Assembly: GCA_030141605.1 (NCBI GenBank)
Contig: JAQGDQ010000748.1
Location: 1-64,000, forward strand
Length of the DNA stretch: 64,000 nucleotides
Direction: 5' to 3'
Source of the DNA: Tubiluchus corallicola
Taxonomy: Eukaryota; Animalia; Priapulida
Under the pieces are notes generated by a model. The model saw only the letters and a program-made list of their open reading frames with translations. It did no database searches and was not told the DNA's origin. Numbering within the stretch: position 1 is the stretch's first letter; each line of letters begins with the position of its first letter. The position numbers and the translations under genes are program-made. Shown here one piece after another: positions 1,248 through 63,158 of this stretch.

Positions 1248-1869
1248 GTGAACATAACATACCTTTGTCAAGTTTCTTTTTGTCATCAGTGCCTCTTCCA
1301 GCCTTGCTTCAATATCTTATTAGCAAAAGTGAAATTAGTAGCTCAATAATTTTCAGCAAGGGTGAACAACGTGTGACGTAAACATCATAATAGCTAAGTA
1401 ATCATTATGGCAAGTGGGGAACACAACAGCAAATGATGGACCAAGCATGCAAATTATGCAATAATTTTGCAATGAAAAAGCGTCTCTTTTAGTCTGGACA
1501 CTTTGCCATCATGGCAGACTTTAATCTCGTTGTATTATATAAATGAATATTATAAGAATGGCCTGTCGCATCTGCCTGCATTAAATATTTGTTTGTCGCG
1601 GCATGCAAAATGCATCATTTGTATAATGTATGAGCTATGCATAATGTTAGTTTTGTGGTGGCAGGCATGGCTTCATTTCACGACATTTTAATTTAACGTC
1701 ATATTTTATTGGAAAGCATTGGCATATAAAGTGTGAATGTACTATATTTTCTGTTATACTGAGCAGTAATTTATTTTGTCACTAATAAAATAACAATAAA
1801 TCTGTTTTATAGGTTCAGTGTTTCTGATGATACTTGTGATATGGTATGAACTGTAACTAAACCAAGACG

Positions 1870-3123
1870 ATGGCTGCCTACTTGTTTTGTTTGACCACAG
1901 GAGGTGGTGTGCCACTTTTTTCACGTATTGTGGGTGATGTTAAATCTCTGCCATTTGCTATAATAGGAACACTTAATGGAGTACACATGTTCGCAAATTC
2001 ACATGATATCAAACTTCTGGCTACACGTACTAAAGGCGCTAAGATTGCCTGGAAAGTTTTCAATAGCAGTATTACGCTGATTTTAGTAACAAATGACAAC
2101 GGGACTTCAGATTCATTTATGCAGCAAATACTTGAATTTGTATTTAATGCGATGGTTTTACTAATTGGACTAGATGACCTTATTAATATAAAAAATGTTG
2201 AACGATTAAAGCGCGAATTGAGATGCTGTTATCAACTTTTTGACTGTTTGCTTGAGCATGACAACCGGGAAGAGTTTGGTGATGTTGTTGTTGCAGCTGA
2301 TATAATGTTAAGTAATAGTAACAGTGTTTTCAAAGAAATTTTGGACAGTTTTGTCGATGCAGCTGATTCCACTTATGGTTGTATAATGGTGCATGGCAAA
2401 GTTGTGGCAGCAACTAAAAAGTGGTGGGAGTTAACTGGTATCGAACTTGTGCTCATTTCTTTGCTAATTTCAACCCTACCTCAAGCTTCATCTCGTGATA
2501 TACCTGTGTTCTTGCCACAAGGAAGCCCGACTGTGCCACACAGACTTTGTACATTGCAACTTACTCCAGGGGTACAGATTTGTATTCTTTGTGGACCTGT
2601 ACCTTCGTTGGCACAGTTAACTAATCGCATTGCAAAGTACTGGCAATCAGCTTTAGACTTGCTACGAGATTGTGCAATAGTATATCCTAGAAATTTTCCT
2701 CATAGTATTGCTGTGGATCATAACATACTTGGATTCATTTTAGTAAACATGAACTCAAAGCAGTGTTTGTGTTCTGTTCAAATAAGGCAAGAGAACACTC
2801 GCAGAGAGGGATTTACAATGAGTTACAATCGAAGGAGGGCTATTTTACGTGCTTTTTATATGTCCACAGTTGGTCATATATTTGAACTGGTATCACAATC
2901 TGATAGTCAAAAAACGCTTCCTAGTGATGATATACATGAACGTCTTCTACATAGACCAAAAGAGGCTTACCAGTTATGTGATACACACAGTTGTTATGCT
3001 ATTCAAACTCACTTGTATAGAATTTTCATCTTGTATAATAAAAGGATTCCTCTCTATGCAACTGGCCCCGTTGCAAAGCATACTATAATTGCTTTAACAA
3101 AGGATAAAAATATCAGAATATAA
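1870..3123 (+). CDS. FUZ: Protein fuzzy homolog (planar cell polarity effector, CPLANE longin-domain protein), 417 aa
   Basis: Recognisable Fuzzy motifs GVPLF, LPF.IIGTLNGVHMF, NVERLKRELR, GKVVAATKKWW, RDIPVFLPQGSPTVPHRL, ILCGP. A splice acceptor tttatag ends at 1812, so a 5' UTR intron is likely. Confidence 0.93.
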   Translation: MAAYLFCLTTGGGVPLFSRIVGDVKSLPFAIIGTLNGVHMFANSHDIKLLATRTKGAKIAWKVFNSSITLILVTNDNGTSDSFMQQILEFVFNAMVLLIGLDDLINIKNVERLKRELRCCYQLFDCLLEHDNREEFGDVVVAADIMLSNSNSVFKEILDSFVDAADSTYGCIMVHGKVVAATKKWWELTGIELVLISLLISTLPQASSRDIPVFLPQGSPTVPHRLCTLQLTPGVQICILCGPVPSLAQLTNRIAKYWQSALDLLRDCAIVYPRNFPHSIAVDHNILGFILVNMNSKQCLCSVQIRQENTRREGFTMSYNRRRAILRAFYMSTVGHIFELVSQSDSQKTLPSDDIHERLLHRPKEAYQLCDTHSCYAIQTHLYRIFILYNKRIPLYATGPVAKHTIIALTKDKNIRI

Positions 3124-6871: not shown

Positions 6872-7647
6872 GGCTGATGCTGTTTCATAAGTTGACACAA
6901 GCCGATCTTCATTTTGTTCTGACAAAACTGAAAATTGTAAAGGTTTCCCCGCGTTTTCTATACTTTTCATTTTTCTCAATAATAAATGCTGTTGTTATTT
7001 TAATTGTTCTTACCGATAATTTAAGTGCAGTATGGAGTGTAAATCGACTTTAGCAATGTCTATTAACTTGCATTTGTTGAGTTTTTTAGCCGCTTATTGT
7101 GCAGTAAGACCTATCTCCTGGGCCTACCGCCCAAAAGTCATTAATTACTTTTTCTCTTTTAATTTTCTAATTTAGTTACGTTCGTTATTTTGGATTTTAA
7201 GTTTTTTTCTGCTTACGTAAAATGATCTACTAATAGTATAATTGGGTACTGTTATTTGGCCTGTATAGTTTTTTGAGACAATAAACCTGAATAAGTAATG
7301 AGTATTACTGTAATTTGTAAATCATCATCATCATATTCCCATGATGTCTATTGTAGACATTGGGCAGGCAAAACTCTAAAAGAAAAGAAATCTGCCCTCA
7401 AGACAGGTAAACACAGCAGCAATTCAGGAATAAATCCAGGCCTGTCATGAGAACGGGAATTAAAAATTACCCTTTACGTCATGAGTTGTTTGAACTTGTT
7501 GTCAGGCAACCACAGTACGGTTACATTATCCACATAAGGCTATAAGATTAAAACGAATAACTATTTCTTTATAAGTGAATATTATACTTGGTATTCTTAA
7601 TTATCTGCTGTGAATTAGCCATGCTCTGTTGCCTATTGTTGTAACTA

Positions 7648-8479
7648 CAATAGTCGCCACTTAATAGACTCACTGGTAATAGACTCAATCGCTTAATTGA
7701 CTCAAAAATGCCTGGAATGGGCTGCTTCTATTCAAATATACATAAAAACTATCGATAATTGACTCAAATAACTTCGCTTAATTGACTCAATATTTTTCCT
7801 TCACATACTTAAAGTAAGACATTTGTATGTGCCCAAACAGTCTTTCTTACTTTCATGTCATCTTTACTTCCCTTTTGTGCATTATATATGTAGAAACAAT
7901 CATGTTAAGTACTGTTTTGTTTGGAAGCAGGTACGTTTATCATACGCTAATAGGCTAGCGTAGCGGTTTTGCTTTAAATCTGTTACCCGCTCGCCCACTG
8001 TTACCCAAAGAATTTCTGGAAGCTAAACATTTAATCACTTGCCTAGCGGTTTCCTCTTGATGCTCTAGTTACAAATCACGCTTTCAGGCTTAATGAGTTG
8101 ATACTCAAAGCTGTACAGTACATTTACTGGCTATGTCATGGAGCAATGTAAGTGAGCAGACGATTCAGAACTGTTTTAGTCATGCCCAATTCAGACTTGT
8201 GTGATTTAGAAAAGTGTACTTATTTACAAAAGTATATTTATTGTTAATTCACTTATACAAATTAATATTTTAAAATATTTTTTCTATTTTTAACTGTACA
8301 AAGGAATTTAGGCATTACTTCATTTCTAAACTTGACTAAAAGCCTTTGCAAGTGCATAGTAAGCTGATGACTCATACTTCTGTAGCAGTAATACTATACC
8401 CATCGGTTAATAGGTTCAATCAGTTAATTGGATCAAAACACGTCGGTTCCGAAGTGAGTCTATTAAGCGGCGACTACTG
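7648..8479 (+). mobile_element. Tc1/mariner (pogo/Tigger-like) MITE, family A, copy 1
   Basis: TIR CAATAGTCGCCACTTAATAGACTCAC / GTGAGTCTATTAAGCGGCGACTACTG, TA on both sides, subterminal TTAAT(A/T)GACTC repeats; homologous copies at 54.5-55.5, 57.6 and 63.2 kb. Confidence 0.9.
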
Positions 8480-8651
8480 TATAACATGCTCTTTTGCCTA
8501 ATGTTACTATAACATTTAAACATTATGTGGCTTCCATTTAAAACGAATCAATTAAATTGTTTCAGATGTAACAGCCAGCCAGTATTGTTTAAGTTTTTAT
8601 TCCTGGATTATTCTCAAATTCTGCACAGCTTTTTTTAGAATTAAGATTTAT

Positions 8652-9850: not shown

Positions 9851-9993
9851 ACTGCACAGTATTGTCAGTATCTAGCACAGAATGTGTAAATAGACCATAA
9901 TGGCTACTGATAATTCATGTTTTACTGGGAAATTTACACGATTTCTCTTCTTACAAGCTTATCTCAAATAAAAGTTAAATTTTGTTATGTATT

Positions 9994-10698
9994 TGTAGAA
10001 AACTGGCTATTTGTTTTACAGATTTTATTTTCATTTTCCTCTCATTGTAAAAAAGAAGAAGGTGAAAACTGCAATAGAACAAGAAAAAAAGAATATCAAC
10101 AAAAATAAAGCAACAGTAAATGTGCGAGTAAATGAGAAACAAGCGTTAGCAAATTAACAACAAGCACACTGAAGCAGAAGGTGATTCAAAATTAAACCGT
10201 TACATATGGCATTACAAAACAAACGCAAAAAATTGCTAACAAACAAACTTCCCAGCATATTCACAAATCAGCACGCACATGCACACACGTGCATGCCTAC
10301 ACAAAAACACGCGCATACGCATGCACTTTAAACAGTTGCAAAAAATCAATAATTAGGCAATGGCTAGAGATGAAAAGAATTATTATCAAATAAACACCAA
10401 CAGGAACTATTAAGCAAACAAATAAACTTACAAACGTTTGAGGATCTGTATAACAAATTTCAAGCCAATCTTCAGAAATCACAAAGAGACATACTGGTTC
10501 TACAACAGTGGCCTACTGAACTCACAACTACTATACTACTAAAACAGGATTTTTTCCTATTCTAAGGCTATCTAACCACTCAATACAAGAGCGGCCAAGC
10601 ATGTCAAACAAACTCTACAGGTAATGCAAAATGAATAATGTCACTCTAGAATTAATACACCTGGCTTCACTGTACCCAAGCTAGCCTGAAAGATAACA
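9994..10698 (-). repeat. 3' LTR of BEL family 2
   Basis: Direct repeat of 15993-16697; about 7 substitutions and no indels by manual comparison; adjacent to the PPT. Confidence 0.97.
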
Positions 10699-10776
10699 CT
10701 CCCCACCGTAGAATAATTGCGATTCTACCACACCATGACCAAAACTCCATGACTGGTATCAACGGCGTCAACGATA

Positions 10777-13700
10777 CTAAGCATCCTTCAAAGCAGCTTC
10801 CAACAGCTCCAGTTTTGTGATCGGACGAACCAACTCTGATGTTCGGGTCTTCACCTTGACAGTTCGCACCAAGCCGTCCCTGCCCTTCATGACATCACTG
10901 ATCAGAGCTAATGGCCATAAGCACCTCGGAGTGTTTTCATCTAACACCAAAACTAGATCACCAGGCTTCAAATTTTCTTTCAAGTCCATCCATTTTCCTC
11001 TCCGTTGAAGCTCAGGCAAGTAGGCCCTCACCCACTTGCGCCAGAATTGATCAGCTAAATTCTGTACATATCTCCAGCGTCGGCGATAAAAATCGTCTGA
11101 ATCAAATTTGCCTGGTGGCAAAGTAGGTCCTTCACGAAGGAGAAGAATATGATTAGGTGTCAATGGTTTGGAGTCACGAGGAACATCACTCAACTTTGTG
11201 ATTGGCCTGCCATTCAGTATAGACTCTACTGCGGCTTTAGATAACAAGGCAGCTAAAAATTCGACGCGTGCTGCGTATCATTCTCTCCCAGTGACCACCC
11301 ATATGTGAGGCTCCAGGAGGATTAAAAATGCCAATCAATCTCCCGCTTCACTGCATATGATTGAATATCCTCTTCGCTCAAGTCTTTCATACTTCGCTTG
11401 AGCTCTGACTTGCCACCAACAAAATTGGTACCATTGTCGCAGACAACCTTTTCTGGCAAACCTCTGCGTGCAGCGAATCTTCGAAAGCTGTTAAGGAAGG
11501 ACTCTGTTTCCAGACTGTTGAGCTTCTCAATGTGCACCGCTCTAGTGGTAAAACAGGTATACAGACATCCATATCTCTTGACCACTGATCTGTTTAGCTT
11601 CACCTGAAAAGGACCGAACACATCGATGCCGACAGTGGTGAATGGTGGTTTGTCAGACTGAATTCTCTCTGGTGGCAAATCTGCCATGCACTGTATACAA
11701 GGCCTAGCATACAGTTTCCTGCAAGTCACACACAGCCGGATTATCTTGTTAACCATAGCTCTCCCTTTGATAATCCAGTACTTCTTCCTGATGTGATTTA
11801 AGACCCACTCTGTGGCCAGTTGTGCAAAGCTATGAGTATCTCGGATAATCGCTGAAGCTACTGGATGACCATACGGTATTATACATGGAGGCACAATGTC
11901 CGCATTAGACTGGCTTATTCTACCGTGTAAGCAAATGATGCCATTCTCATCCATGAAAGGAGCAAGCGGTTTAATTGAACTTGATTTATTAACACTGTCA
12001 CCTGATAATAACTGTTGATACTCTTTAGCAAACACCTGTGATTGCACCGACTTTATTATTATTTTCTCTGCATGATCAATCTCCTGGACAGATAGTCGTC
12101 CTTGACAAGCTGTGCTTCGTTTTTTAAGAACATTAATCAAGCGATGCCACCATGCCACAGCTCTCTTCATGCGGTACCAACTTGAGTAGTGATTAGCAAT
12201 CTTGAGTATCGGGTCTGTAAAGGTACTGCCATCAGCCTGATCTCCAGAAACTCCAGTAATATGACTATAGATATCAGTAAGCTTTCTTGGACCATTGTAT
12301 TTCTTGACCACTGGATCTGCCTCTGGTAGGCTACTAGAATCGATTACTTCTAGGCTCCATTCACTCTTGTGCATCTACAGGAAACTTGGACCCTGGAACC
12401 ATTTCTGAACATCAAGCCTATTTACAACCTGGCCTCTAGAAAGTACATCTGCTGGGTTCTTTCTACTCCCAATGTAATGCCAATGATCTGGTTGTGACAG
12501 CTGGCGTATAGTGCTGATCCGATTGCCAACAAAAACATGAAATCTCCTGCTGTCATTTGCTATATACTTCAGCACTATCTCAGAGTCGCACCAGAAGTGT
12601 GAACCGTCAATCTTAATGTCCAGCTCTTTGCGTAGCAATGCATCCACTTTTACTGACAGAACTGCCGCCTGTAGCTCCAGGCGAGGAATTGTACACTGTT
12701 TTAGAGGTGCTACTTTGCTCTTGCTCATGACCAACTCTGTAAAAATAGCCCCTGCTTTGTTGATACATCGTATGTATGAGCAACTGCCATAAGCAAGCTG
12801 GCTGGCATCTGAGAAGTGGTGCAGCTCGATGACAGCATCATAGAACTCCGCAGGTTTTATACACCTAGGTCTCCGCAACTGACTTATACCTTCAAGCGAA
12901 AATAGCCATGTTCTCCATTGATAGTCAAGATCAGATGGGACAACTTCATCCCAAGACAGCCTATGTCGAGTTGCCTCCTGGAACAACAACTTTCCTGTTA
13001 AAACCAAAGGCCCAATTAGACCTAGAGGATCAAATATGGACGACACTATACTCAACATCTTCCTTCTGGAAATATTATCAGTTTGTAACAGTTTCTGGTC
13101 AATCACAAAGTAGAACTCATCTGACATGATACTCCATTTAACACCCAACACCCTTCCAGATGCTTCTGTTCCAAAATCTTTGACTTCCTTTGCTCGCTTA
13201 TGCTGTGGTATTTCGCAAAGCAACTCACTATCATTGACAACAAAAGCAGTTAAGTTGAAACCAGACCTCATCAAAACTTTTGGCACATCATGTATAACTG
13301 TGCGTGCTTCTTCAAGTGTGGCGGCTGATCTGAGACAGTCATCAACGTAGAATGACCTCATGACAATGTCCTTTATGACGGAGTCCACATGTTCGTACAT
13401 GACCGCACGTTGCAGAGCATAAGTGGAACTGGCTGCACACCAGATGCCACCAAATAAATGTGAAGTCATACGATAATGCACTACTACGTCACCATTCTTG
13501 TACCACAAGAAACGAAGTGCATCTCTGTCTTTCAGTGGTTTACGTACTTGATTGTACATTGCCTCTATATCAGCTTGAACCGCATAGGGATGCTGCCTGA
13601 AACGAAGAAGAACATGTAAAAGCTTATTGATGAGATCTGGACCTTGCTTGCATCGCTCATTCAAGGACCTTCCGTGAAATTTACTGGCACAGTTGAATAC

Positions 13701-15974
13701 TACTCTAAGCTTGCCTGGCTTCTTCTCTGTTATAACATCATGATGAGGCAAGTACCATATTCTTTCTGCGCTAAAAATGTCCTCTGCAGGCACGGGTTCT
13801 GCGTAACCATTCTCAAGAAGCTTGGTAATCTCATCATCATACCGCTGGAAAAGGTTTCTCTTATCGAGTCTCTTGACAAGTGACTTTAGGCACGCCTTTG
13901 CTACCACAAAATTATTTGGAAGTGGTTCATTTCTATCCTTCCATGGAATGGGTATCTCAAAGTGGCTATCCACCATGCAGCATTCTTCATCCCACATATC
14001 TACTACGGATTTGTCTTCTTGTGACCATGATGTATCATCTATGCCCTCATTTTCAATGTCCCAGATCTTCTGAACTTCCTCTTCAATTGATACGAGGGTA
14101 ACAAAATGAGAAATAGCTCTGTGACTGGCTTTAGAAGGAGCCGTGCTGCCGTTCAAACACCAACCAAACATTGTCCGCACAGCAAAGGGTTCTCCTCTCT
14201 TGCCTTTCCTGACATCCAAGGGAACAAGTGCTTCTGCATTATCTTGCCCAATCAATATGTCAGCGCCAGAACTCTGAAGATGCTTGCCAACAGGAAGTAC
14301 AATGTCGGAAAGATGTTTATACTTGCTGGTGTCCACTCCTTCACACTGGGCTGGTATTTTATCAACAACATAGACTCTTGACATACTGAGCGACTCTCCG
14401 GCACTAGACGAAATAGTAAGGCTAACCACTTCAGAAGATTTAATAGATGATCTATTCAGTGTCCTCAGTTGATAATCCTCCTTGCTGCCAGTTATTCCAA
14501 GCTGTCTAACCAACTTTCGAGAACAAAATGAACTGGTTGAACATGTGTCTAGAAGTGCTAGTGCTTGGCATGCATTATTGACTACTACCTGAACCACTGG
14601 CATACAAGTATTACCACGGGTAGAAGTACCGGCATTAGACACCATAACATCAGCACCCTCTGTAGTACTGGGCTCATCTACATGAATGTACATGGTATGT
14701 TTCTTGCCACATCCGCGTACCGAACAAACAGATTTCTTCCCACACCTCTCTGTCGTATGAGATGACAACAAACAGTTGTGGCATAACTTGAACCTCTGAA
14801 CAACGCCAAGTCTATCGTGAATATTCATCTTCTTGAATTGCTCACAGTGCCACAAGCGATGATGTTCACTGCAAAGAACACATGGTGGTTCTGGTTTAGC
14901 ATATGACTGCAATCTAGGATACCGCATTGGTGTAGGGTGTCCTTTGTTAGACCTGACACCATCCACAGCTGAAACAAAATTGGATGACCGTGTTGCACGT
15001 CTCTCATTTGAGTTACTCTGTTTCGTCATACTAAACTGGCCATAAACTGGATCATTGATATCTGCTGCAACATCTTTAACAAACTCCACCAGAGACATGA
15101 AACCTGGATACGCCCCAGTGTTCTTTTTCACCTCCAGCGCATGCTTCTTCCACTTGATTTGGATGTATGGTTGTAATCTTTGGACAATCTCTAAAATGAT
15201 GGTTTGAGAATCAACTTCCTGCAACTGATGTAATTGGCTCAAAATAACAACTGCATTACTCATTTCATCTGCTAGCTGCTGCACCTCTTGTGGAGATTTT
15301 ACTGGTTTACCATGCCTCATTTGCCTGACCAATTGCTCAGTCACAAGGTGTGAATTGCCAAACCTCTCTTCCAAAATTTCAATTGCCTTTCCATACCCCC
15401 TGTCTCCACCAATCAGCTGACACCCTCTAATGGCTTCCTTGGCTGGCCCATCAGTATACTGCATAAGCCTGGACAACTTGAGATAACTGTCAGCACAAAT
15501 ACAATCAACATTATGCTCAAATGCTTTAATGAACTGATGGTACTGAAGTGGATCTCCTTTAAAAGTCTGTAACTCAACTTTTGGCATGTTAAGCAAACTC
15601 AGCAACTCACCCCTGGTAATGTCGTCAGCACCAAATCCTGGACCAGCCCAACTGGCCTTCTTTACTGGTGACCCTACTGGAGACTTCTGTTTCACATCTG
15701 TAGTATACTGCTTTGCTAAATTCAGAACTGTGATGTAGTCTTCCTGCACCTTGTAGAAATAAGCATCACTGGTTTCCAAGTCATCCTCAGTCTCCAAAAT
15801 CTGATGATAAGAATCATGTGCTTTGGTGAACTCCTTGAAGATGCCCTTCAGTCTTTCAACTCTTTCAGCTAATTTTCCTGTATCATCTTCTGCTAGTAAC
15901 TGCTTCACCTGATTGACATCTTTAGTGACTGCCCTCTTGGCCTTTGACCTCGCATTCTTCAACTCAGCAGTCAT
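10777..15974 (-). pseudogene. BEL gag-pol polyprotein, disrupted
   Basis: ATG at 15974; gag (TFKGDPLQY) with three Cys/His knuckles; protease ALLDTCS; RT FYVDD; RNase H LHHFSDASQLAYG; integrase IDVFGP, CDNGTNF, PLTPNH. Lesions: TAG at 12377-12375, apparent +1 T frameshifts near 11325 and 11258, and a short deletion before AVESILNGRP. Confidence 0.93.
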
Positions 15975-15992
15975 GATGAAACGTTTTTTCAC

Positions 15993-16697
15993 TGTAGAAA
16001 ACTGGCTATTTGTTTTACAGATTTTATTTTCATTTTCCACTCATTGTAAAAAAGAAGAAGGTGAAAACTGCAATAGAACAAGAAAAAAAGAATATCAACA
16101 AAAATAAAGCAACAGTAAATGTGCGAGTAAATGAGAAACAAGCGTTAGCAAATTAACAACAAGCACACTGAAGCAGAAGATGATTCAAAATTAAACCATT
16201 ACATATGGCATTACAAAACAAACGCAAAAATTTGCTAACAAACAAACTTCCCAGCATATTCACAAATCAGCACGCACATGCACACACGTGCATGCCTACA
16301 CAAAAACACGCGCATACGCATGCACTTTAAACAGTTGCAAAAAATCAATAGTTAGGCAATGGCTAGAGATGAAAAGAATTATTATCAAATAAACACCAAC
16401 AGGAACTATTAAGCAAACAAATAAACTTACAAACGTTTGAGGATCTGTATAACAAATTTCAAGCCAATCTTCAGAAGTCACAAAGAGACATACTGGTTCT
16501 ACAACAGTGGCCTACTGAACTCACAACTACTATACTACTAAAACAGGATTTTTTCCTATTCTAAGGCTATCTAACCACTCAATACAAGAGCGGCCAAGCA
16601 TGTCAAACAAACTCTACAGGTAATGCAAAATGAATAAAGTCACTCTAGAATTAATACACCTGGCTTCACTGTACCCAAGCTAGCCTGAAAGATAACA
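15993..16697 (-). repeat. 5' LTR of BEL family 2
   Basis: Direct repeat of 9994-10698; AATAAA at 16028-16023; followed by GTGAAAAAACGTTTCATC and then the gag ATG. Confidence 0.97.
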
Positions 16698-18081
16698 GTA
16701 TTCTTCATTATGTTGATACCTTTGACGTGATCGTGAATTTCTCTAAAAATTATGCAACTCATAAATTATTCGTTCACACCCGACTGACTCCATTTTCAAC
16801 AGTGGTGCAATTTACTCAACATTTTGGTTATTGTGCTTCTAAATACGGATCTATCACATTTTAGCAGTTAGTATTCTTTATGCATAATATCCTTTTTACT
16901 TTCTATCTAAAGTTTAATTTATCTTTAATACAAAAAAGTGTGGTTAAAGAACATGTCAAAATTTCTTTCATTTTTTTGTACGTAGTTTTGTGCACATTTT
17001 GCATAGTAATAACACTATTTTCTAGATGACAATAAATAAAGATCAACAAAGCAAGCTGAACATGAACAAAAACAAAAACTAAATCTGAATTAAGAAACTT
17101 TACTGTGTTTTGTGTTTCAGCAAAACTTATAACATTCATTGCAACTTGCACTGTACTGATTCTAAGACAAAAAACTTAAATTGCATCAAGTTACAAGATT
17201 CAGATACATCTGGTATTGAAAATTAAGCGAATTAAATATTCGGATTTGATTTGATTTTGAAAACTTCTAAAATGTGAGATTTGAATTCAATTTGATTATG
17301 GAAATGAAGCAAAATGAGCTTCGGATTCTATTTGGTTTAGGAAATTTAAGCTTCGTCCTACATCTAATAGCTAGCAGGATTTCAAGACGATGTTGACCAA
17401 ATTGTTCAAAGCTTAAAATGGTCTCGCTGATTTGTTCTCAAAGCAAAAAACATTGTAAAATGAAATTTTAATAAGGAAATTTAGTTCTCTTAGGAAATGT
17501 TTGCTTACTATGCAGACAGTTAAGTAATAAGACTACAAATCACACATAATAAAACTGCTAGGTTAGGTGCATACATAATACAAAGGAACGTTTGCTATAT
17601 TGAATATAAGTGTACTTTTCGGGGAATTGATCACAACCTGAATTACAGAAGAGTGCCATATAAATGCATTGTAGTAAAAGCATGCCAATGCTTAACGATC
17701 CTTATAAATTATACATAAATAACAACAGCTGTTTTATTTGTATAGTTATAGTTCAAAACATATTGAAATTGTTACATGGGATCAAAAGATGATTTATTAA
17801 CTTGTATTACTCTTGAGAATGGCTGCCAATAGATAACTAACATATTGAGTTTGTCTAAAGGTAATTAATCTCTTGACCCAGTTTAACAGTTTCAGTAAAT
17901 AATAATGGCAAATTAGGTTTAAAGTTGCATGTTGTATTGAGATCTGCAAAGAAAAATCGTATAATAATTTCGGCTTCTTGAATATGAAATGTAATCACTT
18001 TATTGTATGCACTTTTTGTACTATGCTTTTGAACGAGTTTGCTTATTTTCTGCTTTTTCCAGAAAATTGGCTTTTGCAAAA

Positions 18082-20331
18082 ATGGAGCATGTACAAATTA
18101 TTCACCAGTCTCTGGATGGTGTGCAGATGGTGCAACAGCAAATCGAGGGTGCACAGGTAATAGAACAACAAGTAGATGAGGGACAGATAGTGGAACAACA
18201 ACTTGATGATGGTCAGGTAATAGAGCAACAGCAGATGCTTGAACAACAGCTGGAAAATGAGCAGATGGTTCAAGATCAGTTGAATCATTCCCATGTGAGC
18301 AGTGGGCAAGTTGTAGAGCAGCAGTTAGATGGTGGTCAAATAATGACACAGCAGTTGGAAGGAGGGCACATGCAGGTACATGTTGTAGATGAAAATGGGC
18401 AGATTGTTGAGCAACAGATGAATGGCGGACCTGTGCATATTGTGGAGCGTCAGTTGGATGGAACTCATATAGTAAAACAGTTAGAAGATGGTCAAATTAT
18501 AGAACAACCTCTGCATGGAGTGCAGATAGTTGAACAGCAGTTAGATGGTCGACAAACTGTTGTGCAAACTATCACTGAACCCGCAGAAGCAAGCCGCATG
18601 GGTCAGGCAAACGAGGCTTTGGGTCAAGCCTATGAACAGTCTTCACAGCCAGAACTGGAAACAGCTATACACACCATTAATTTTGACGTTGAAAATGGTA
18701 CAGTATTATCCACGGATGCAGTTCTCATTGACGGCTTGGTTCCTAATCATGAGATGCTGGTATGCTTTGAATGCATGGCATGTGAGTCAAAGTTTGCAGA
18801 TGAAACTGAGTTCCTTTCGCACACACGAGCTGCTCATTGCTTAGTAACTTTAGTTGATCCAGAACAAGCTGCCTCGATGACAAATCGTGTTGGATTGCCA
18901 TTCCCTATTGAAAAGTGGAAACCAAAAACAGATTTTTTTGTACGTCCTGAAGGTGATGATGAAGACGAATACATTGTTGAGCGAAAACATGGTAACTTTT
19001 CTGTCAAGAGCCGGAAAAGAGCTTCTGATGCATTATCAGCTGGCGGTGCATCTAATTACGTTATTGAACGATTGCAGATGAGTGATATCATTGCAGCATT
19101 GAAGTCGTCTGGCAAAAAAACTGATAGTATTCCTTCTGTTAAATCTGTCGAGTTAGCTAAAGGCAAAAAACCTGTTCCAAGAAGATCAGCTGGTTCGAAG
19201 GGAATTACCATACCGAAATCAGCTCTGCGAGGGAAAGGTGATACCCGTGAATTTTCTCAAGAAGTTATTCTTGTTCCAATTGTAGGTGCTGATGGCAAAA
19301 ACCAAGATCCTGTTTTTCTTTTCAAGAATCCAAATGCACCTGTACCTGGATTCGTGCCAGCAGCAGATGAACCTATTATTGTTATGCAACAGGATTCGAA
19401 GAAGCAAACTCCAGCCCGCATAGTAGCAAGCAGAAGTGGTGATGCGACACAGGAAAGTAAGCCCAAAATGCAAATGTCAACCATTGGCACAATTGCATCT
19501 GCAAGCAGTGGAGCTGAGACTGGTGGAGGCACGAGCATTAATGCATCAGAAGACATCATTCAAGTTCCAGTCGTTTATACCCAAGCGGATCTTTCTTCAT
19601 CTGCTGCTGGTGAAGCCCAGAAGTTTGTTGTTCATGGAGATGGTGAAAATATGTCAGTTATAACACCACAGAAGAGTCAATCTCTGAAATCACCAAACAA
19701 AAGTCAGATCTCTGTATCACCAGTTAAACCAGTTAAAGTGTCTCCACCATTTCCTTCTATCAAAGTTTCTACATTAAAACCAGATGTTCAGACTGGAAAA
19801 CATTCAGGCATTCGAACTTTTACACTTCCTGTTAGTCAGTCGGGTAGTGACAGTGGTAGTGAAGGTTTATCGCCAGCTCGCGTGTCTGAATTGTTTCCTG
19901 GGAAATCATTTACCATCAAGCCGGAACCACTGGACATACCAACAGTTGTAATTGATTCACCATCAAGTAGAACTAGAGGAGTAAAACGCCGACGTCCACA
20001 GATATTTGAGATAAAACCAGTTAGATCTGAGGGTGGACAAGGTTATAGTATTTCTACTACTGAAGCTGCTACTGAAGAGCAGACAGGCGATGCAGAACCT
20101 AACATTAAACTGATGAAGTTAGCTGATACTGTTGTCTCTGCAGCACAGGATGAAAACACTGATATTCAGATGCAAGTTGCTGAGAAGCAAACTGATGACT
20201 TTGCTGAAGCTTTCCAAGAGGACGAAGCTGCATCAGCAGATACTGATAAAGGATCATATACTATAGGTCAAGTAGTTATTGGGGAGGAAGGGCAAATACC
20301 AATAACTACTGGACTGGGATCGCAAAGTTAA
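18082..20331 (+). CDS. Uncharacterised 749-aa protein: N-terminal Gln-rich 10-aa repeats, one C2H2 zinc finger, long low-complexity tail
   Basis: Long ORF; acceptor tttttccag ends at 18062 and the first ATG after it is 18082 (AAAATGG); C2H2 CMACESKFADETEFLSHTRAAH at 18772-18837; basic KRRRP motif. Confidence 0.8.
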   Translation: MEHVQIIHQSLDGVQMVQQQIEGAQVIEQQVDEGQIVEQQLDDGQVIEQQQMLEQQLENEQMVQDQLNHSHVSSGQVVEQQLDGGQIMTQQLEGGHMQVHVVDENGQIVEQQMNGGPVHIVERQLDGTHIVKQLEDGQIIEQPLHGVQIVEQQLDGRQTVVQTITEPAEASRMGQANEALGQAYEQSSQPELETAIHTINFDVENGTVLSTDAVLIDGLVPNHEMLVCFECMACESKFADETEFLSHTRAAHCLVTLVDPEQAASMTNRVGLPFPIEKWKPKTDFFVRPEGDDEDEYIVERKHGNFSVKSRKRASDALSAGGASNYVIERLQMSDIIAALKSSGKKTDSIPSVKSVELAKGKKPVPRRSAGSKGITIPKSALRGKGDTREFSQEVILVPIVGADGKNQDPVFLFKNPNAPVPGFVPAADEPIIVMQQDSKKQTPARIVASRSGDATQESKPKMQMSTIGTIASASSGAETGGGTSINASEDIIQVPVVYTQADLSSSAAGEAQKFVVHGDGENMSVITPQKSQSLKSPNKSQISVSPVKPVKVSPPFPSIKVSTLKPDVQTGKHSGIRTFTLPVSQSGSDSGSEGLSPARVSELFPGKSFTIKPEPLDIPTVVIDSPSSRTRGVKRRRPQIFEIKPVRSEGGQGYSISTTEAATEEQTGDAEPNIKLMKLADTVVSAAQDENTDIQMQVAEKQTDDFAEAFQEDEAASADTDKGSYTIGQVVIGEEGQIPITTGLGSQS

Positions 20332-31934: not shown

Positions 31935-33065
31935 GTGCGGTTTGTATTGAGCTAAACAAGTTTGTCCTGACGCAGTGATGAAATGTTTGTCTTTAAAATT
32001 ATTTTTAATAGACACGTTTTTGTTTATCTTTTCTGTAGTACAATTGATAATGCAGAGATCAACAATGAAACATTTCCAAGTTTTAACAAGTGATTACTGC
32101 ATACACGTGTGTACAAGGTGACCATAAAATATTAAGATCTTCCAGAGTAAATGATGTCAACAATGACCGAGTAATAAATCAATAGCCTACTATGTTAGTG
32201 TGTAAGACCCGTGCAAGTGCCTGGGCCGAGTATATTATACCTACCTGATATATATATATATATCTGTGTGTATATATATTCATGTTGAGGGCCCTCAATG
32301 CAATCCACGATAAAGCAGCCTGGCCTTTCATCGCGCATAATTGTTTGTAGTGCCTTTAACCCTAGGATGTCGCAGCCAGGAATTACAGTAATATTTGTTA
32401 AGTTTGTGAAGTAATGTCAAGATGCGAACATTCTCTGATGCGAAGTATCACAGTATGAGTGTTCATTCAGCCCAGCATATAATGAAGGATTATTTCTTTA
32501 CATATTCGTATTGTAGATGATTCTTTAGCGACATCTCCCAAAAACATATCATAAGTCTGCCCCAAAAACTTCACCTTAAAATCATCACCAAGTATATACG
32601 GTATGTGCTAAGATATCAGCTTACATTCAATAATCATTTCTTTTAGTTATTAATTTTTCTGATCGTTTTACATGTAATGTAGGCTGATAATGCAGAGAAC
32701 AGCTTTGAAGCATTCGTAATTTCAATACACGACTGTAAGCTAAGATACCAGCTTTCGTTCATTTGAAACCGCACAGTACTCTAAGTTGGATTTGTGAATG
32801 AGAATTATGTTAGTGTTTCATATGGTCCCGGAAACAGTTGCTTTATTGTATTGTCATTTAGTTCTACCTGTTTGCTATACATTATAATTGATAAAATTTT
32901 TAGTGTGATAATTAATTATTAGTATTATTTTAATCTTATATTTTTCTAATGGTTACTACTGTTTTTTAAGGTTCTGATTTCATTTAACATTGTCATTGTT
33001 GTTTTATTGTACGTAATTATGTGGATCTAATAAACTTAACTAATGACGTCATATTTTTTATGCAG

Positions 33066-35343
33066 GTATCGTACAACAATGGCAGATGGATACTATTCGT
33101 CAACGCCTGATTATCTAAGAGATTACCAGGCTGATTGGTTTGTGCCTACTCTTTCTCGACGAGAGAGGCAGGAACGAGCATTGCGTCGCCGTCTTGATAT
33201 GTTCGATGTTCAAAACTTATGGCGCCGAAGAAATGCTGCAACAACTGAAACGAGGCGGCGTGTGTACAGGTATCGCTTACGGTTGCGTCAAATGCAGAAT
33301 GCGCAACAAGGTTACCGGGACACCAGTCCGGAATTCTTCAGATCGAATCCAGCATGCACACATCGACTTGTTCCGTGGCTTAATCGCGAATTAGCAGTAT
33401 TGCTGTATAATGCTGAAACTCAAATAGCATTTGTACTTGAGCTAATCATGTCATTGATTGTACGATACGAGATTCTGAGTGAAGATATGTATCAGCATCT
33501 TGAACCATATTTACAAAGCGATACGAGACAGTTTCTATATGAATTCTACCATTTTGCTAGGTCACCTCTCGATATGATTGGATATGATCGAATTGTGGAT
33601 TATGAATTTGCCGGCCAGCGACACGAAATACCGGATGAACCACTATCTTCGGCAGCTACAGAAAGTTCACATCCAAATGAAGATCCAGGCATTGATATTA
33701 ATGACGAAGATATTGTTTTTTTGCCACGTGATCCTCGAATATCAATGCCGTCTAGTACTGCATTAAAAGATCGATCTGCTTTTACATCACTTGTTACCAC
33801 GAGGTCTTCCAGATACAGCCATAGTGGAAATACTCCTGAATTGCCTCTGAGTCCATTTCCCGAGGCATCCCTAAGTCCATTTTTGTATTTGAATTCACCA
33901 GTGCATTACCCCGCAAGACGTTCACATGCCAGGTCAAGGTGGCCAAGTTCGGTACCTGCTGCAAATCAAGCTCAAATGGAAGCTGATGCTGGGCAAATGC
34001 TAATTAACAGGGTTAAAAATTCTCTGAGTGACACTTCCAGCGATCCTGCAGGATTGCCATTGCCTCAAATAATTTCATTGTCTTCAGCTTCTGATGGCAG
34101 CGACATTGAATTTGTGGAAGAAGTTAAACCAAAGCGCAAGCGCACGCCTGAAGTAGTGCATATTTCTGATAGTGAGGATGACATTAATACAGATGAGCCG
34201 GGTCCTTCATGGAGGCACATGCCTGGCACACGTTGTGCAACCAGTAGTAGCAGTTTGTCTAGTGATTCAAGCTCACATGGTAGTTCTACTCTAAAAAAGT
34301 CTCCACCATTATCACCGTACTGGAACAGAAAGTTGCACAAACGTATTTGGTCTCCTGCAGGTTCTGATTACACTAGAGATGAGTCTGCATCAAATGAGGA
34401 TCTTTTGCTGAGAGATGCTACCACATTGCAGCATGAGGACAAATACAGTAAAAGCTCATCTAGTGATGCGGGCTCACCAAGTGGTTCGATGAAAAAAAAT
34501 CAAGGAAAAAAATCTAAAATGGCACGGTCATGGCCATTTTGGAAAAATGGCCCTGACAAAAAATCTTTGTCTCGGGCTAGTCCCACATTTAGTCCTGATT
34601 TGCTGACAGGTACTTCCAAGGGTATGTCAGCTTCACCTGAAGGTCCCTTTCATAAGAAGTCACCAGTACTTTGGAAAAGCAAATCACATTCTTTTGCTAA
34701 GCGCATTCTGTCACCAATATTTGATTCCGATTCTAATCATTCAGCTAAATTGCCTCAAAATCAACATTTAAGTGGTACTAAAATGGCTGTAGCAAATGAT
34801 TTTACTTCTGCTGAAATAGATTTCAGACTGCCTTCTCCACCAGGACTTGCCTCTTCTTCAGTGCGTTCGCAAGAAAATCACCCCATGTCTGACAGATCAC
34901 CAGTTTCTTCTTTTCCAGTTGATTTGGATTTCATTGGAGCAGTTGATTCAGACTTGGAAAAAAGTTCTGACAGTGAGTCGACTATTATAATGTCAAAGAC
35001 AAAGAGTAATAACTGTGTTAGTGCCGATGAGTCACCTAGAAGAACGAAATGTACCAGCAAAGATCTGGATGGGTACAAGAAGAGTAGTAAACGTGCACAC
35101 ATACACGAGAATAGCCTCCCTCTAAAGAAACGCCATAAGCACAGATCTTTCCGATCACGATCTAGGCATTCTTCATCTTCACCTGAACGAAGTCATTCTA
35201 AATCACGATTAAGTTCTGTCATTGTTTGTAAAGGAAATCCGCAATTGGATGAGTTTAGCGAGCGTTCCTCGCATCATAGAAGGCACAAAAAGAAAAGACG
35301 CTCAAAACACAAGAAGTCGAAGCATAGGGACATGACACACTAA
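33066..35343 (+). CDS. TOPORS: Topors terminal coding exon
   Basis: tgcag|G completes RRFRYRTT; Topors block SPEFFRSNPACTHRLVPWLNREL...FARSP; SIM-like DIEFVEEV and RTPEVVHISDSEDD; Ser/Arg/Lys/His-rich tail. Spliced total is 2673 nt (890 aa). Confidence 0.93.
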
Positions 35344-37474
35344 AAAACTAGATGATACTTTGTATATAAATGATTAGTTTTTATTTCTTTCTCCTTGGTT
35401 AGTGATATGTGTATACCTATATAAAATAATATAAAATTTATAATGACTTAAACACTTTCATTCGTATTATATAATTTACGTATTTTGTCATTCTTGCTTT
35501 TGTGCTTGACTAGCTGAATTAGCTTCCTATTTCTCTCTTTAACTATATTCCTAGTTATGCAGATTTTGTTGTATAACGGATCTATGAGTGGGTAATAATA
35601 TTTTCTGTTCATATCTTGATGGCTTATTATGCTGTACTATTATTCTTTTTGACAGTATTCAAATTTGAATTGCTTTGTAGACCCATGAAAAAACTGTATT
35701 TAGCACCTAATATTATTAACAGGACCATATTATGATGAATATGCATACGTGATAAATAATACCTTACTGAACTCAACTTTTCTTTGTGTGGTAACTGATT
35801 ATCATTGCTTAAGATACATTTTTTGACAGATGATTTCGATCAAATTCTATTAATAATGACCATTATTTTCCAATTTTATTTAATTTTTGAGCAAAACGAA
35901 AATTTGTTAAGCTTGCTGTTAATTAGGATGTTTGGTATAACAGCTGATTCTGATAAACATCAATTAAAGCAAAATACATGATTCGTAATTGTAGTTGTTT
36001 GCACTTTGTGTTTTACCATAAGAGTGTAACCATTTTAATAATCGACTCCACAATACTAAATATGTACCTTAATGTAGGAGCACGATTTTATTTAAAAAAA
36101 ACACAAGTTATTTACAGTAAGAACAATAATTACGATAATGATGTGCCATGAATGGAAAATAAGCTGCTTATTTACAAGTTGACTGTGAACATCATTAATA
36201 GTAAGGTGCATTATGCATAGCTAGAATATGTTAATCATTTTTACGATATTAATAGGTCTAGTAACTTAGTACATTATGTGTATGAAAGATTTAATATAAT
36301 TCTGCTCAGACATAATTGTCTTTTATTGCTGTTTCTGACCTTATATCCAGGAAAGCTTATTCAGTGGAGTGTATTTTTCTAACACTGTCTGATGCTTTAG
36401 AAGCGACTAGCTTGATATCACCATGCACTGTAGTCCAAGAAATTATTTATCACAGTAGCATAATAGCAGATAAAGTACTCCAGTCATGTTTCCAGGAGTT
36501 TTTCTGGCATATCACACCATTTTGAGAAATTAATATTTCAGAATTCTAACTAGTGCAGCCGTCTGTAGTATCTGCTATTTTGTTTACAGAAAAGATTTCC
36601 TGCGCTGGCATTTTATGAAAGCTTATTTTTAGAAAACGTAGACTACGTTTTTAGACTACGCTTTTACGTAGGACATTGTGCTTTGCCTAGTGTGCATTAA
36701 TTAAGCAACTGGGTAGAGTGTCATTCCATGCCTCAGGTAATAGGTTTGCATTCACTTCTGCTGTACTTTCTAGTAGTAATCCATTTCTATAACAAAAAGA
36801 ATCCATAATTGTTTATAGCTACTTCTAATATACACACCATTATAATTCTACCTTTGTTGAATTACCATAGTTAATATCTGCTAAATTTTTAACGTCCATA
36901 AAGAAATAAGCAAGGCAGTCCTGGAGTTTAGTACTTGCTTGACTTAAAAAATTATCCATACAAGTTTGTGTGTTCAACTCTTCGCAGCTTTTGAGCAAAC
37001 AAACTTCTATTATTTTTGTAACCAGTCAAGCTACGGCACTAAAGTCTTGGTCGTCTGTTGTCTAGGATTACTCATTTTCTACTAATTCCTGACATTGAAC
37101 TGCCCACTGACTATCCTATCAAAGTCCACATTTGATCCTGTAAATTACTTAATTTGGTTCAAGTTTGATTGCTTAGTTACTTAATTACACTACCCGATGT
37201 CATCAACTATCACATTAAAATCTGTTACGTATCTGGTACCGTGGTATAAGTTTCTTAAGTTTGGTTGCCAAGCTCCTAGTGTATTAGTATTTGAAATTCT
37301 CCTACAGTTTTGAACGTCCCACCCCAAATCTACCAACTGCCTAACTGACATCTGTTCCACAGCAGGTAATTTACGTTTACTTAACTGGTTAACTAACTGA
37401 GAAAAATCTCTGTGCTGTAAGTTTCTTGAATTTTATGTTGACTGGCTTCAGAATCTTCGTTATTGATGAAAAAT

Positions 37475-39394
37475 CTATACGCTAGGAATTTGTAAGCTCT
37501 TACTCTTATAGTCGTTGTAGCCATCATCATGTCCATGTCCCTTTTTCCCATACCCATCATCATGTCCATATCCTCCTTTGCCATACCGATCATTGTGTCC
37601 ATATCCTCCTTTGCCATACCCATCATCATGTCCATATCCTCCTTTGCCATATCCATCACCATGTCCATATCCTCCTTTGCCATATCCATCATCATGACCA
37701 TATCCTCCTTTGCCATACCGATCATTGTGTCCATATCCTCCTTTGCCATACCCATCATCATGTCCATATCCTCCTTTGCCATATCCATCACCATGTCCAT
37801 ATCCTCCTTTGCCATATCCATCATCATGACCATATCCTCCTTTGCCATACCCATCATCATGTCCATATCCTCCTTTGCCATATCCATCACCATGTCCATA
37901 TCCTCCTTTGCCATATCCATCATCATGACCATATCCTCCTTTGCCATACCCATCATCATGTCCATATCCTCCTTTGCCATATCCATCATCATTCCCATAT
38001 CCTCCTTTGCCATATCCATCATCATGCCCATATCCTCCTTTGCCATATCCATCACCATGACCATATCCTCCTTTGCCATACCCATCATCATGTCCGTATC
38101 CTCCTTTGCCATACCCGTCATGCCCATATCCTCCTTTGCCATATCCATCATCATGCCCATATCCTCCTTTGCCATACCCATCATCGTGTCCATATCCTCC
38201 TTTGCCATACCCGTCATGCCCATATCCTCCTTTGCCATATCCATCATCATGCCCATATCCTCCTTTGCCATACCCGTCATCATGCCCATATTCTCCTTTG
38301 CCATATCCATCATCGTGTCCATATCCACCTTTGCCATACCCATCATCATGCCCATATCCTCCTTTGCCGTATCCATTATCATGTCCATATCCTCCCTTGC
38401 CATATCCATTGTCATGTCCATGTCCTCCTTTGCCATACCCGTCATGTCCATATCCTCCTTTGCCATATCCATCATCATGTCCATATCCTTTGCCATATCC
38501 ATCATCATGACCATTTCCTCCTTTGCCATACCCATCATCGTGTCCGTATCCTTTGCCATATCCATCATCATGCCCATATCCACCATCATGTCCATGTCCT
38601 TTTTTGCCATATCCATCATCGTGTCCATATTCACCTTTGCCATATCCGTCGTCATGCCCATATCCTCCTTTGCCGTATCCATTATCGTGTCCATGTCCTC
38701 CCTTGCCATATCCATTGTCATGTCCATATCCTCCTTTGCCATACCCGTCATGCCCATATCCTCCTTTGCCATACCCATCATCATGTCCATATCCTTTGCC
38801 ATATCCATCATCATGACTATATCCTCCTTTGCCATACCCATCATTGTGTCCGTATCCTTTGCCATATCCATCATCATGCCCATATCCTCCTTTCCCATAT
38901 CCATCATCATGTCCATATCCACCTTTGCCATATCCATCTTCGTGTCCATATCCTTTTTTCCCATATCCATCATCATGTCCATATCCTTTTTTTCCATACC
39001 CATCGTCATGTCCATACCCACCTTTTCCATAGCCATCACTGTGTCCATATCCTCCTTTCCCATATCCATCATGTCCATATCCATCTTTGCCATATCCATG
39101 TCCATAACCTCCTTTCCCATATCTATCATTGTGTCTATATCCTCCTTTGCCATATCCATCATCGTGGCCATATCCTACTTTACCATATCCATCATCATGT
39201 CCATATCCTCCTTTACCATATCCATCGTCATGCCCTCCTTTGCCGTGCCCCTTGCCATAACCTTTACTGTACCCGTAGTTGGTCATCGAGTATCCACGTC
39301 TTCCATAACTTCTGCGATCCATTCTTGCGATGGATTTTTGAGTTCCACTGCTTTTATATAAATCGCCACCGTATCCATATTCGCCAGTAATTAT
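37475..39394 (-). CDS. Gly/Tyr/His/Asp/Lys-rich repeat protein (about 53 x GYGKGGYGHDD); main exon of a probable secreted structural protein
   Basis: 615-aa ORF from ATG 39322; the frame is open 24 more codons up to cttatag| at 39394 (IITGEYGYGG...). Variation between units is mostly synonymous in this frame (GGA/GGG/GGT, CAT/CAC, GAT/GAC). Confidence 0.8.
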   Translation of the reverse strand: MITGEYGYGGDLYKSSGTQKSIARMDRRSYGRRGYSMTNYGYSKGYGKGHGKGGHDDGYGKGGYGHDDGYGKVGYGHDDGYGKGGYRHNDRYGKGGYGHGYGKDGYGHDGYGKGGYGHSDGYGKGGYGHDDGYGKKGYGHDDGYGKKGYGHEDGYGKGGYGHDDGYGKGGYGHDDGYGKGYGHNDGYGKGGYSHDDGYGKGYGHDDGYGKGGYGHDGYGKGGYGHDNGYGKGGHGHDNGYGKGGYGHDDGYGKGEYGHDDGYGKKGHGHDGGYGHDDGYGKGYGHDDGYGKGGNGHDDGYGKGYGHDDGYGKGGYGHDGYGKGGHGHDNGYGKGGYGHDNGYGKGGYGHDDGYGKGGYGHDDGYGKGEYGHDDGYGKGGYGHDDGYGKGGYGHDGYGKGGYGHDDGYGKGGYGHDDGYGKGGYGHDGYGKGGYGHDDGYGKGGYGHGDGYGKGGYGHDDGYGKGGYGNDDGYGKGGYGHDDGYGKGGYGHDDGYGKGGYGHGDGYGKGGYGHDDGYGKGGYGHDDGYGKGGYGHGDGYGKGGYGHDDGYGKGGYGHNDRYGKGGYGHDDGYGKGGYGHGDGYGKGGYGHDDGYGKGGYGHNDRYGKGGYGHDDGYGKKGHGHDDGYNDYKSKSLQIPSV

Positions 39395-54315: not shown

Positions 54316-54544
54316 CTGAAATGAAAATTAAAGGAAAATTCAATCAAACACTACTCAAAAACTTAGCAATACATCACATTTCCAAATAACTGGGAATGAA
54401 AGAAATTTAGCAAACTGAAAGAATCAACCAAAACAGACTTTTGGTTTGAAACTGTGACAGGTACCAAAACATATAGAGTAGGTGCCATTTATTAGTCTTA
54501 CGGTTAATATATAGAATCAAATGACTAAATGTTTAGCTATCAAA

Positions 54545-55471
54545 AAAGCGGGCAAGCGGACGGCAGATTCAAAGCAAAACCGCTACGCTAACATATTAGC
54601 GCGTACAATAAATGTATTGTACCTGCTTTTAAATAAAGCTGTACGTAGCATGACTGTTTATACATATATTATAGTGCACAAAGCGACATGAAAGCAAAAA
54701 ACTCTACCCTCAAGTGTCTTATTTTAAGTACGTGAAGCAAAAATGTTGAGTCAATTATGTGGAGTTATTTGTGTCAATTACCAACAGTTATTTTATACAT
54801 TTGAATAGGTGGTGAGATATTTTATTTTCTTTTTTTATTAATTCACTTACGCTCATATCTCGGCTTGCCGGACAAACATGGGGAGACATCGGTCCGAATT
54901 TGCCGAATGTTTGTATTAACTGATTCTAAGCTAATACAATAGGTGCCGTGTATTAGACTCACGGTAATGCAGAGTCAATCGCTTAATTGTCTCAATAACG
55001 TCTGTGCAAAACTATATAAAAACTGTCGGCAGTTGACTCAAATAACTCTAATTGACTCTAAACCACTTACACATGCTAATTAAACCACTAAACATGCTGA
55101 TATACCCGCTGTTTGGATGTAAACAAAGTGACGGCCCACCAACTAGCAGTCAGCTCACAAAATAACTGACTGCAATCGTTGTATGCAGAATTTTTTAGCG
55201 GTCCATGTTTTGTCCAATTCTTCCAATATCCGTAAAAGCGAGGTCCAGCAAACCGAGATATGAGTGTATATAAATTAGTATTCTTAAATAATTGCACATA
55301 GGAATTTTGACATTAATTCGTTTCTAAAATTCATTTAAAGCCTTCAAAATGCATACTAAGGTGATGAGTCATGACTCACACTTCTATAGTAGTAAGATGC
55401 TACACCCGTCAGGTAATTGAATCAGACAGTTAATTTGGCCAAAACACTTCCATCCCAAAGTGAGTCTACTG
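54545..55471. mobile_element. Two degenerate MITE family A pieces (minus-strand partial at about 54545-54810; plus-strand copy at 54937-55471)
   Basis: Similar to 7648-8479; TA|CAATAGGTGCC...GTGAGTCTACTG|TA ends on the second piece. Confidence 0.7.
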
Positions 55472-55561
55472 TATCATGCACTGTTGTAGTTTTAAACATT
55501 TTTTTCGAAATTCAAGAATGATAGAAAGTCACCAAATGATTGAAATGCATTGATATCTTAC

Positions 55562-57516: not shown

Positions 57517-57604
57517 CTATTGTATTAATAAAATTATTTTAAAAAAAATAATGGCGTCATAAATTGCTTTGCAAATAACTGCAGAAAAATTCAGCTTTCT
57601 AATA

Positions 57605-58572
57605 CAGTAGATGTCGCTTAATAGACTCACTTTGGGACCGAAGTGTTTTGACTCAATTATAACCGAATGAAGCTATAAACCGATGGGTGTTGTATTAGTG
57701 GTATAGAAATATGAGTCACCAGCTTAGTATGCACTGCAAGGGTTTTTAATGAATTTTAGAAACAAAGTAATGCCTAAATTCCTTTCTGCAGTTAAAAATA
57801 AAAAATATTTTAAAATAATAATTTATATAATGAATTAGCAATAAATTAAAAAGTATTCTTTTCTAAATTATACAAGTCTGTTTATTTGCAAAAGTTACTT
57901 CAAAGTCAGCTACTTCATTTTATCGTGAAGAAGTTGGTTTACAAAGTTCTCATCTACTGATAAAACCTCTTGTATGACGCACATATTCTCGTAAAACACT
58001 TAGTGCTTGGCATGCTTGAATTGATAGTGGTGCCCGTGTTTCCCTGCAAGTAGTTTCGCCCAAGTTCCCACTTGCTATCATGATATACTTACTGTACTGT
58101 ACCTGCGTCCCTGGCATAACAGCAAAGGCAAACGAAACTCTGGCAAACACAGCCAAAGCTTCAAAAGCAAACTGCTAAGCAAGTGATTAAATGTTTAGCT
58201 TCCAGGAATTCTTGGGTAATGCGGTTAATTGCAGTGGATGGGCGGGTCAAAGGAAACCATTAGGCTAGCATATTAGTGTACGATAAACGTTCCCCCTTAC
58301 AAAAAAACACGGTACCGAACATGATTGTTTCTTATGTATATTATAGGACAAAAGTGAACGAAGAAGATATAAAAGTAGCAAAAGCCTACTCACAGGAAAG
58401 TATCTTATTGAAGCATGTGAAGCAAAAATAATGAGTCATTTATATGGAGCTATTTGAGTCAATTACCGACAGATTTTATGTACACTTGAATAGAAGTGGC
58501 CCGTACCAGGCGTTTTTGAGTCAGTTAAGTGATTAAGTCTATTATTCGTGAGTCTGTTAAGCGTGCCTGCTG
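57605..58572 (-). mobile_element. MITE family A copy (reverse orientation)
   Basis: TA|CAGTAGATGTCGCTTAATAGACTCAC...GAGTCTGTTAAGCGTGCCTGCTG|TA; reverse-complement similarity to 7648-8479 and 63159-64000. Confidence 0.88.
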
Positions 58573-63104: not shown

Positions 63105-63158
63105 CTGAAAAAATATATTTGATTTTAATAAACAAATGTCCAAATCTAATTTCAACTA

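Follow-up and report, generated by a model that had tools for sequence, protein, structure and literature searches.

The window, meaning the whole 64,000-nt stretch of the Tubiluchus corallicola contig that was analysed, carries a BEL/Pao retrotransposon, all features of which are given on the minus strand. The element is young; its 5' LTR (15993-16697) and 3' LTR (9994-10698), each 705 nt long with TG...CA ends, differ by 7 mismatches in a pairwise alignment and are 99% alike. A 5-bp target-site duplication (AATAC) was found at 16698-16702 on the 5' side and at 9989-9993 on the 3' side, each copy matching the other flank, and a polypurine tract recognised from the sequence (10699-10707) adjoins the 3' LTR. 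The LTR ends, the duplication, and the polypurine tract are those of an LTR element. The gag-pol region (10780-15974, with the gag ATG at 15974) was delimited using Pfam domains and reading frames and is of the BEL/Pao type. Pfam matches to DUF1759, Asp_protease_2, Peptidase_A17, Integrase_H2C2, and DUF5641 were obtained, in the order Gag (DUF1759), protease, RT/RNase H with Peptidase_A17, and integrase with DUF5641 that characterises BEL/Pao. The frame is disrupted by an in-frame stop at 12375-12377 and a frame change near 11280-11320. The BEL/Pao superfamily (Belpaoviridae) comprises the lineages BEL, Tas, Pao, Sinbad, Suzu, Dan, and Flow, and the window element shares with it the domain set, the single gag-pol, and the 5-bp target duplication. 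The protein of the element had 5967 homologues, the best at 65%, and the closest named proteins were from echinoderms (61-64%).

Outside the element, an unbroken 420-aa frame at 1861-3123 (plus strand) contains all three Fuz/MON1/HPS1 longin domains according to Pfam and is, judging from these domains, a Fuzzy-like host gene that is intron-free here. Three other open frames, of 778 aa (17995-20331, plus strand), 767 aa (33040-35343, plus strand), and 547 aa (55558-57201, minus strand), gave no Pfam match, and the first two are unrelated to each other. A long array of 33-nt tandem repeats at 37393-39394 has several open frames of 593-639 aa, distributed over both strands; a frame on the minus strand is rich in Met and Asp, and another frame, inspected by eye, would read as a Gly/Tyr/His/Lys-rich 11-residue repeat resembling a structural protein. 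A dispersed repeat of about 0.8-1 kb occurs four times, at 7643-8482, 54544-55472, 57602-58563, and 63154-64000; the copies are 75-90% alike, lie in both orientations, and probably represent a non-autonomous mobile element. No tRNA gene was found in the 64-kb window.

LTR intron and predicted primer in the window element

An earlier note on this DNA had proposed that removal of an intron from the LTR assembles the complement of a non-tRNA primer-binding site. When the sequence was re-examined, all of its coordinates for the LTR, the intron, the site, and the primer halves held. The internal region opens with GTG-A6-CGTTT (15992-15979) and, as had been claimed, contains no TGG; these 14 nt (15979-15992), which adjoin the LTR and lie 4 nt upstream of the gag ATG, are the predicted non-tRNA primer-binding site. 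The 363-nt GT-AG intron candidate described in the note (16068-16430) was also recovered, with a GTAAGT donor at 16430, a pyrimidine tract (73% pyrimidine over the last 60 nt), and a CAG acceptor ending TATTGCAG at 16068, and it is present in both LTRs (10069-10431 in the 3' LTR). The predicted self-primer is divided by this intron into an exon-1 half of 8 nt (16431-16438), which pairs with 15979-15986, and an exon-2 half of 7 nt (16061-16067), in which one T is bulged in the window copy.

Joining the exon-1 end AAACGTTT to the exon-2 start TTTTCAC gives a stretch of 15 nt with seven T against the six A of the site. All 14 nt of the site pair with it, in agreement with the earlier note, giving 14 bp with one bulged T and a longest unbroken run of 11 bp. 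An 11-bp run across the canonical junction was reached by 0 of 1034 internal 25-mers and by 0 of 500 shuffles. The best unspliced match was 8 bp, which is at the level of chance (equalled by 204 of the 1034 internal 25-mers). The complementarity between the junction and the site is not due to chance. An LTR complement of at least 10 bp placed 0-5 nt behind the LTR, as in Tf1-type elements, is found in the window element only across the splice junction (11 bp unbroken, 14 bp with the bulge). The loop between the exon-2 half and the site (15993-16060) contains the 68 nt after CAC that the note had counted as strong-stop length (16060-15993), and on the Tf1 model it would be the minus-strand strong-stop template; an AATAAA (16028-16023) lies inside it. 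The CA at 16439-16438 directly before the exon-1 half may be the start site. A further acceptor located 9 nt upstream of the LTR end would produce an identical 11-bp run; it was rejected because no template would remain and the relatives show nothing equivalent. The Rfam search over the LTR gave nothing near the gathering score, and the unspliced exon-2/site region folded no better than its shuffles (z -1.38).

Other copies in the same organism were compared in DNA contigs from four runs (X1-X4), which represent at most two samples, X1 and X2 being from the same sample. The earlier note had suggested that other copies might have seven A in the site, and this was not what was found: most DNA contigs instead have one T fewer at the exon-2 start, with one letter of the run 16064-16067 missing (depth of gap/total, 3443/5987 in X1, 170/170 in X2, 63/75 in X3, and 242/242 in X4). 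The junction of these shorter copies would set six T against the six A of the window's site, and some of the contigs belong to a subfamily with additional small gaps. The extra T of the window is present in both of its LTRs, consistent with this stretch having been inherited from a 3' LTR. One DNA contig joins 16431 straight to a variant exon 2 and retains no letters of the donor or the acceptor. Its depth in X1 was 168, compared with about 200 in the flank, and it was seen in X2 too. Such an intron-less DNA copy is the product left when a spliced RNA is reverse transcribed, and it was observed here at one locus in one sample. LTR depth in the DNA runs was higher than internal depth, which suggests many solo LTRs, depth being a poor measure of copy number.

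Complementarity and intron distribution among relatives

Relatives were taken from an alignment of 65 proteins, which gave 84 loci (5 in genome contigs and 79 in metagenome contigs); the search of viral contigs found no relatives. The strict set consisted of 11 elements, window included, in which the LTR end is fixed by the LTR pair and is thus independent of pairing. For the strict test, a junction was defined as a Watson-Crick helix across GTRAG/YAG. The splice-site filters were set after the first matches, and the nulls were run under the same filters. When the LTRs of this set were spliced in silico and compared with shuffles, as the earlier note had envisaged, 8 of the 11 elements had a junction-crossing helix of 10-15 bp, which in each case was matched by none of the roughly 1,000-1,250 internal windows and by none of the 500 shuffles. 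Two elements (L004 and L055) are intronless and have an uninterrupted match of 11 or 10 bp (reached by 1 and 2 of 500 shuffles), and one (L079) has neither form, with a matching donor half and no AG at the expected acceptor. The off-diagonal maximum of the cross-family matrix was 8, and the best unspliced match was at or near chance in the intron-bearing elements of this set.

The wider scan covered 55 of the 84 loci plus the window (56 elements). The remaining 29 loci were left out, mostly because the contig start was too near the RT match, and L040 duplicates L041. Split complements were found in 25 elements (20 distinct families), uninterrupted ones without an intron in 7, one half only in 6, and nothing in 18; in several of these 18, the reading frame runs off the contig start. 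The strict version of the scan missed six split loci (L005, L014, L039, L041, L068, and L070), which were added from other analyses. Under the looser null, the best of 20 shuffles equalled or exceeded the observed helix for the window, L003, L030, and L055. Allowing any GT/GC donor gave chance helices of up to 13 bp, and a scan of this kind served only for finding missed sites. The 10-bp matches in L071 and L073 at offset 7 were rejected as chance, L073 having a better-placed but mismatched half. In L052 (1623-2047) and L037 (1-615), a good acceptor is followed by the exon-2 half, but the available LTR sequence contains no canonical donor that matches, which may be due to short-read collapse or a different donor.

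The helices of the 20 intron-bearing families are 10-16 bp long, and the introns, measurable in 18 of the 20, are 76-542 nt. The site lies 0-8 nt from the LTR end (0-5 nt in 18 families), and TGG, expected in a tRNA-primed element, is found within the first 8 nt in 0 of 20. In each of the 20 families, the two primer halves complement the site in register, and the pairing is kept while the letters vary from family to family. Each of the positions -4 to +5 shows three or four Watson-Crick pair types, and because the search required three pairs per side, the evidence at these positions is the variety of letters, not the number of pairs. Mean duplex energy was -19.1 kcal/mol for cognate versus -6.7 kcal/mol for non-cognate combinations, with the cognate duplex best in its own row in 14 of the 20 families; in the other six, the best partner was L003, L029, or L074, in most cases a family whose site is similar. 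In the close relatives L002 and L003, the exon-1 end and the site have changed together with 11 bp kept, and the intronless L004 reads as the joined form of L056/L058.

The distribution of the intron was placed on a quick RT tree that contained only the 38 rows to which a state had been assigned, using SH-aLRT support only and a midpoint root. The seven intronless families are scattered on this tree, amounting to seven separate changes, each required by well-supported branches. The simplest reading would be that an ancestral intron was lost repeatedly, the root being a midpoint only. A long branch divides the window's group from the rest of the tree, and the feature therefore spans 40-51% RT identity. 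The split self-complement is a real, clade-wide feature. Strong support for the core idea of the earlier note, that the complement of a non-tRNA site is put together by splicing, comes from the covariation across the 20 intron-bearing families, from the seven intronless families with an uninterrupted match, and from the intron-less DNA copy in the same organism. The part of its interpretation that did not carry over as a general rule is the exact fit of the primer to the LTR edge. This fit is seen in the bulged register of the window and in 5 of 19 other families, and the offsets of the unbroken helices range over 0-8 nt.

Among the same loci, L001-L005 are animal-type BEL/Pao elements, four of them with both LTRs, that lie on contigs in bacterial MAGs of GTDB; host contamination of these bins is most likely. 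L040 and L041 lie on one 18.5-kb contig with a head-to-tail repeat every 6138 nt at 100% identity, which may be a tandem array, a one-LTR circle, or an assembly loop. The exon-2 half starts with AATAAA or ATTAAA in L029 (83-88), L074 (253-258), and L080 (1404-1409), so that the primer and a poly(A)-like signal overlap there (noted without a null).

Start site, proposed mechanism, and rival explanations

A CA was found 4-11 nt before the donor in 16 of the 20 families versus 71 of 267 other GTRAG sites. This enrichment suggests a start site that would place the helix right at the RNA 5' end, where it is in Tf1. In folding calculations, the spliced leaders of 13 of 15 families formed the duplex when the 5' end was set 8 nt before the donor (median P 0.95), and those of 8 of 15 did so when it was set 80 nt before the donor. 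In unspliced leaders, the exon-2 half paired in 0 of 15 families and the exon-1 half in 4 of 15. The folding models favour a start near the donor. The predicted fold of the window is fragile, with a mean P of about 0.8 that falls to 0.51 with a slightly longer 3' flank, and the P of its duplex is near 0 when the RNA starts at least 30 nt before the donor. L039 folded poorly at most start points. The predicted first exon of 5-9 nt is unusually short.

The likely reading of these data is Tf1-like self-priming by a spliced-together primer, in which the 5' end of the BEL/Pao RNA would prime on a template that has no tRNA-type site. Transcription would start a few bases before the donor, at the CA, and splicing would join the short exon 1 to exon 2, as indicated by the splice signals, the intron-less DNA copy, and the intronless sister families. 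The joined 10-16 nt would then pair with the site 0-8 nt behind the LTR, a predicted duplex for which the complementarity and covariation are seen. A site starting at this distance is where minus-strand synthesis must begin, and since the offsets vary from 0 to 8 nt, an overhang of variable length would be left at the DNA end. As in Tf1, the RNA would be cleaved by RNase H behind the helix, which would release a 3'-OH and, in the window element, leave 68 nt of template. Once strand transfer had taken place, the usually unspliced 3' LTR would supply new copies of both the primer sequence and the intron, and rare splicing of the 3' LTR copy would give rise to intronless lineages with a ready-made primer. 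A slight preference is also given to the view that a whole branch of animal BEL/Pao elements was ancestrally dependent on the host spliceosome for reverse transcription, with a capped first exon of 5-9 nt being spliced to exon 2 to make the primer, the identical intron in the 3' LTR of that molecule being kept and thereby inherited, and loss of the intron providing a repeated escape.

Three other explanations were weighed. The splice-built duplex could be real and act by the gag start as a switch of translation, packaging, or dimerisation, with priming by something else, for example a tRNA fragment. The variable offsets from the LTR end would suit such a switch, as would the proximity of the site to the ATG, which it precedes by 4 nt in the window and by 16-43 nt in many families. 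This role is nevertheless unlikely: the start of the site is always confined to the 0-8 nt that follow the LTR, but the first ATG can be as far away as 190-340 nt (L005, L025, and L081); the sequence of the site varies from family to family, so that one host RNA could not pair with every site; and TGG was found in 0 of the 20 families.

Priming in trans, by a short spliced polyadenylated RNA (its source being a solo LTR, a 3' LTR, or a second, co-packaged RNA) that pairs with unspliced genomic RNA, appears quite unlikely. Most of the spliced leaders (13 of 15) readily form the cis duplex, a short RNA would still need a cut behind the helix, and Tf1 acts in cis according to the available text of PMC7175516. 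Priming in trans would also account for inheritance of the intron, and it is consistent with the A(A/T)TAAA hexamer in exon 2 of 13 of 17 families (a count without a null) and with the solo LTRs suggested by LTR depth, a poor measure of copies. It is highly improbable that one half only, of exon 1 or exon 2, self-primes on unspliced RNA, with the intron serving expression or export and its position being incidental. The two halves match the site in register in 20 of 20 families, in 9 of these exon 1 contributes no more than 3-4 bp, and the best unspliced match is at or near chance in intron-bearing elements. The exon-1 half does pair without splicing in 4 of 15 families, its match extends to 8-10 bp in the window, L064, and L081, and seven families manage without an intron, but a duplex with exon 1 only would end 4-9 nt further from the LTR edge.

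Significance and comparison with known systems

If self-priming by a spliced-together primer is true, it would be a third route to minus-strand priming, after the host tRNA and the uninterrupted self-primer, and self-priming would reach a third LTR superfamily. It would also explain the absence of a reported primer site in such elements, the complement being invisible in DNA before the intron is removed. Transposition would be tied to splicing, giving a control point for both host and element, and a puzzle would arise in that one molecule splices its 5' intron yet keeps the identical 3' intron. The scattered intronless families form a natural series for intron loss by reverse transcription.

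The full-text literature search, with Repbase notes and subscription journals outside its scope, found no splice-assembled primer and no BEL/Pao self-priming among the titles and abstract openings returned. Within the text open to term searching, the BEL/Pao-related surveys PMC554778, PMC3118150, PMC6238403, PMC8556966, and PMC2996953, and the paper PMC11117352, had no mention of PBS or tRNA, and the available sections of PMC3601003, PMC8220671, PMC6934838, and PMC3286476 had nothing on splice-assembled primers or BEL/Pao self-priming. According to the accessible parts of the respective papers, the first 11 bases of Tf1 pair and RNase H cuts between bases 11 and 12 (PMC7175516, PMC4600332), and self-priming is known for Tf1, Tf2, and Tj1 and predicted in the plant Tcn1 and TAR lineages (PMC7175516, PMC4600332, PMC6317226).

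As far as these partial texts describe them, Tf1 and Tf2 of Schizosaccharomyces pombe, Tj1, and the Tf1/sushi group of Ty3/gypsy resemble the present elements in having no tRNA site and an LTR segment (about 11 nt there) that complements the sequence behind the LTR. The window element differs from Tf1/sushi in being BEL/Pao by its domains, not a Ty3/gypsy chromovirus, and in that the primer is split by a predicted spliceosomal intron in 20 families and would exist only once spliced, whereas that of Tf1 is uninterrupted. The plant Tcn1 (gypsy) and TAR, Houba, and Osr-1 (copia) elements have the same signature, an LTR complement of at least 10 bp placed 0-5 nt behind the 5' LTR; the search reported there was for an uninterrupted match, which a split primer would escape, and the part of that paper available describes no LTR intron (PMC6317226). 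In Tf2, formation of the RNA 5' end determines whether the transcript contains the self-primer, as stated in the excerpted text, and the switch there is the choice of start site, whereas in the BEL/Pao families it would be splicing (PMC5341516).
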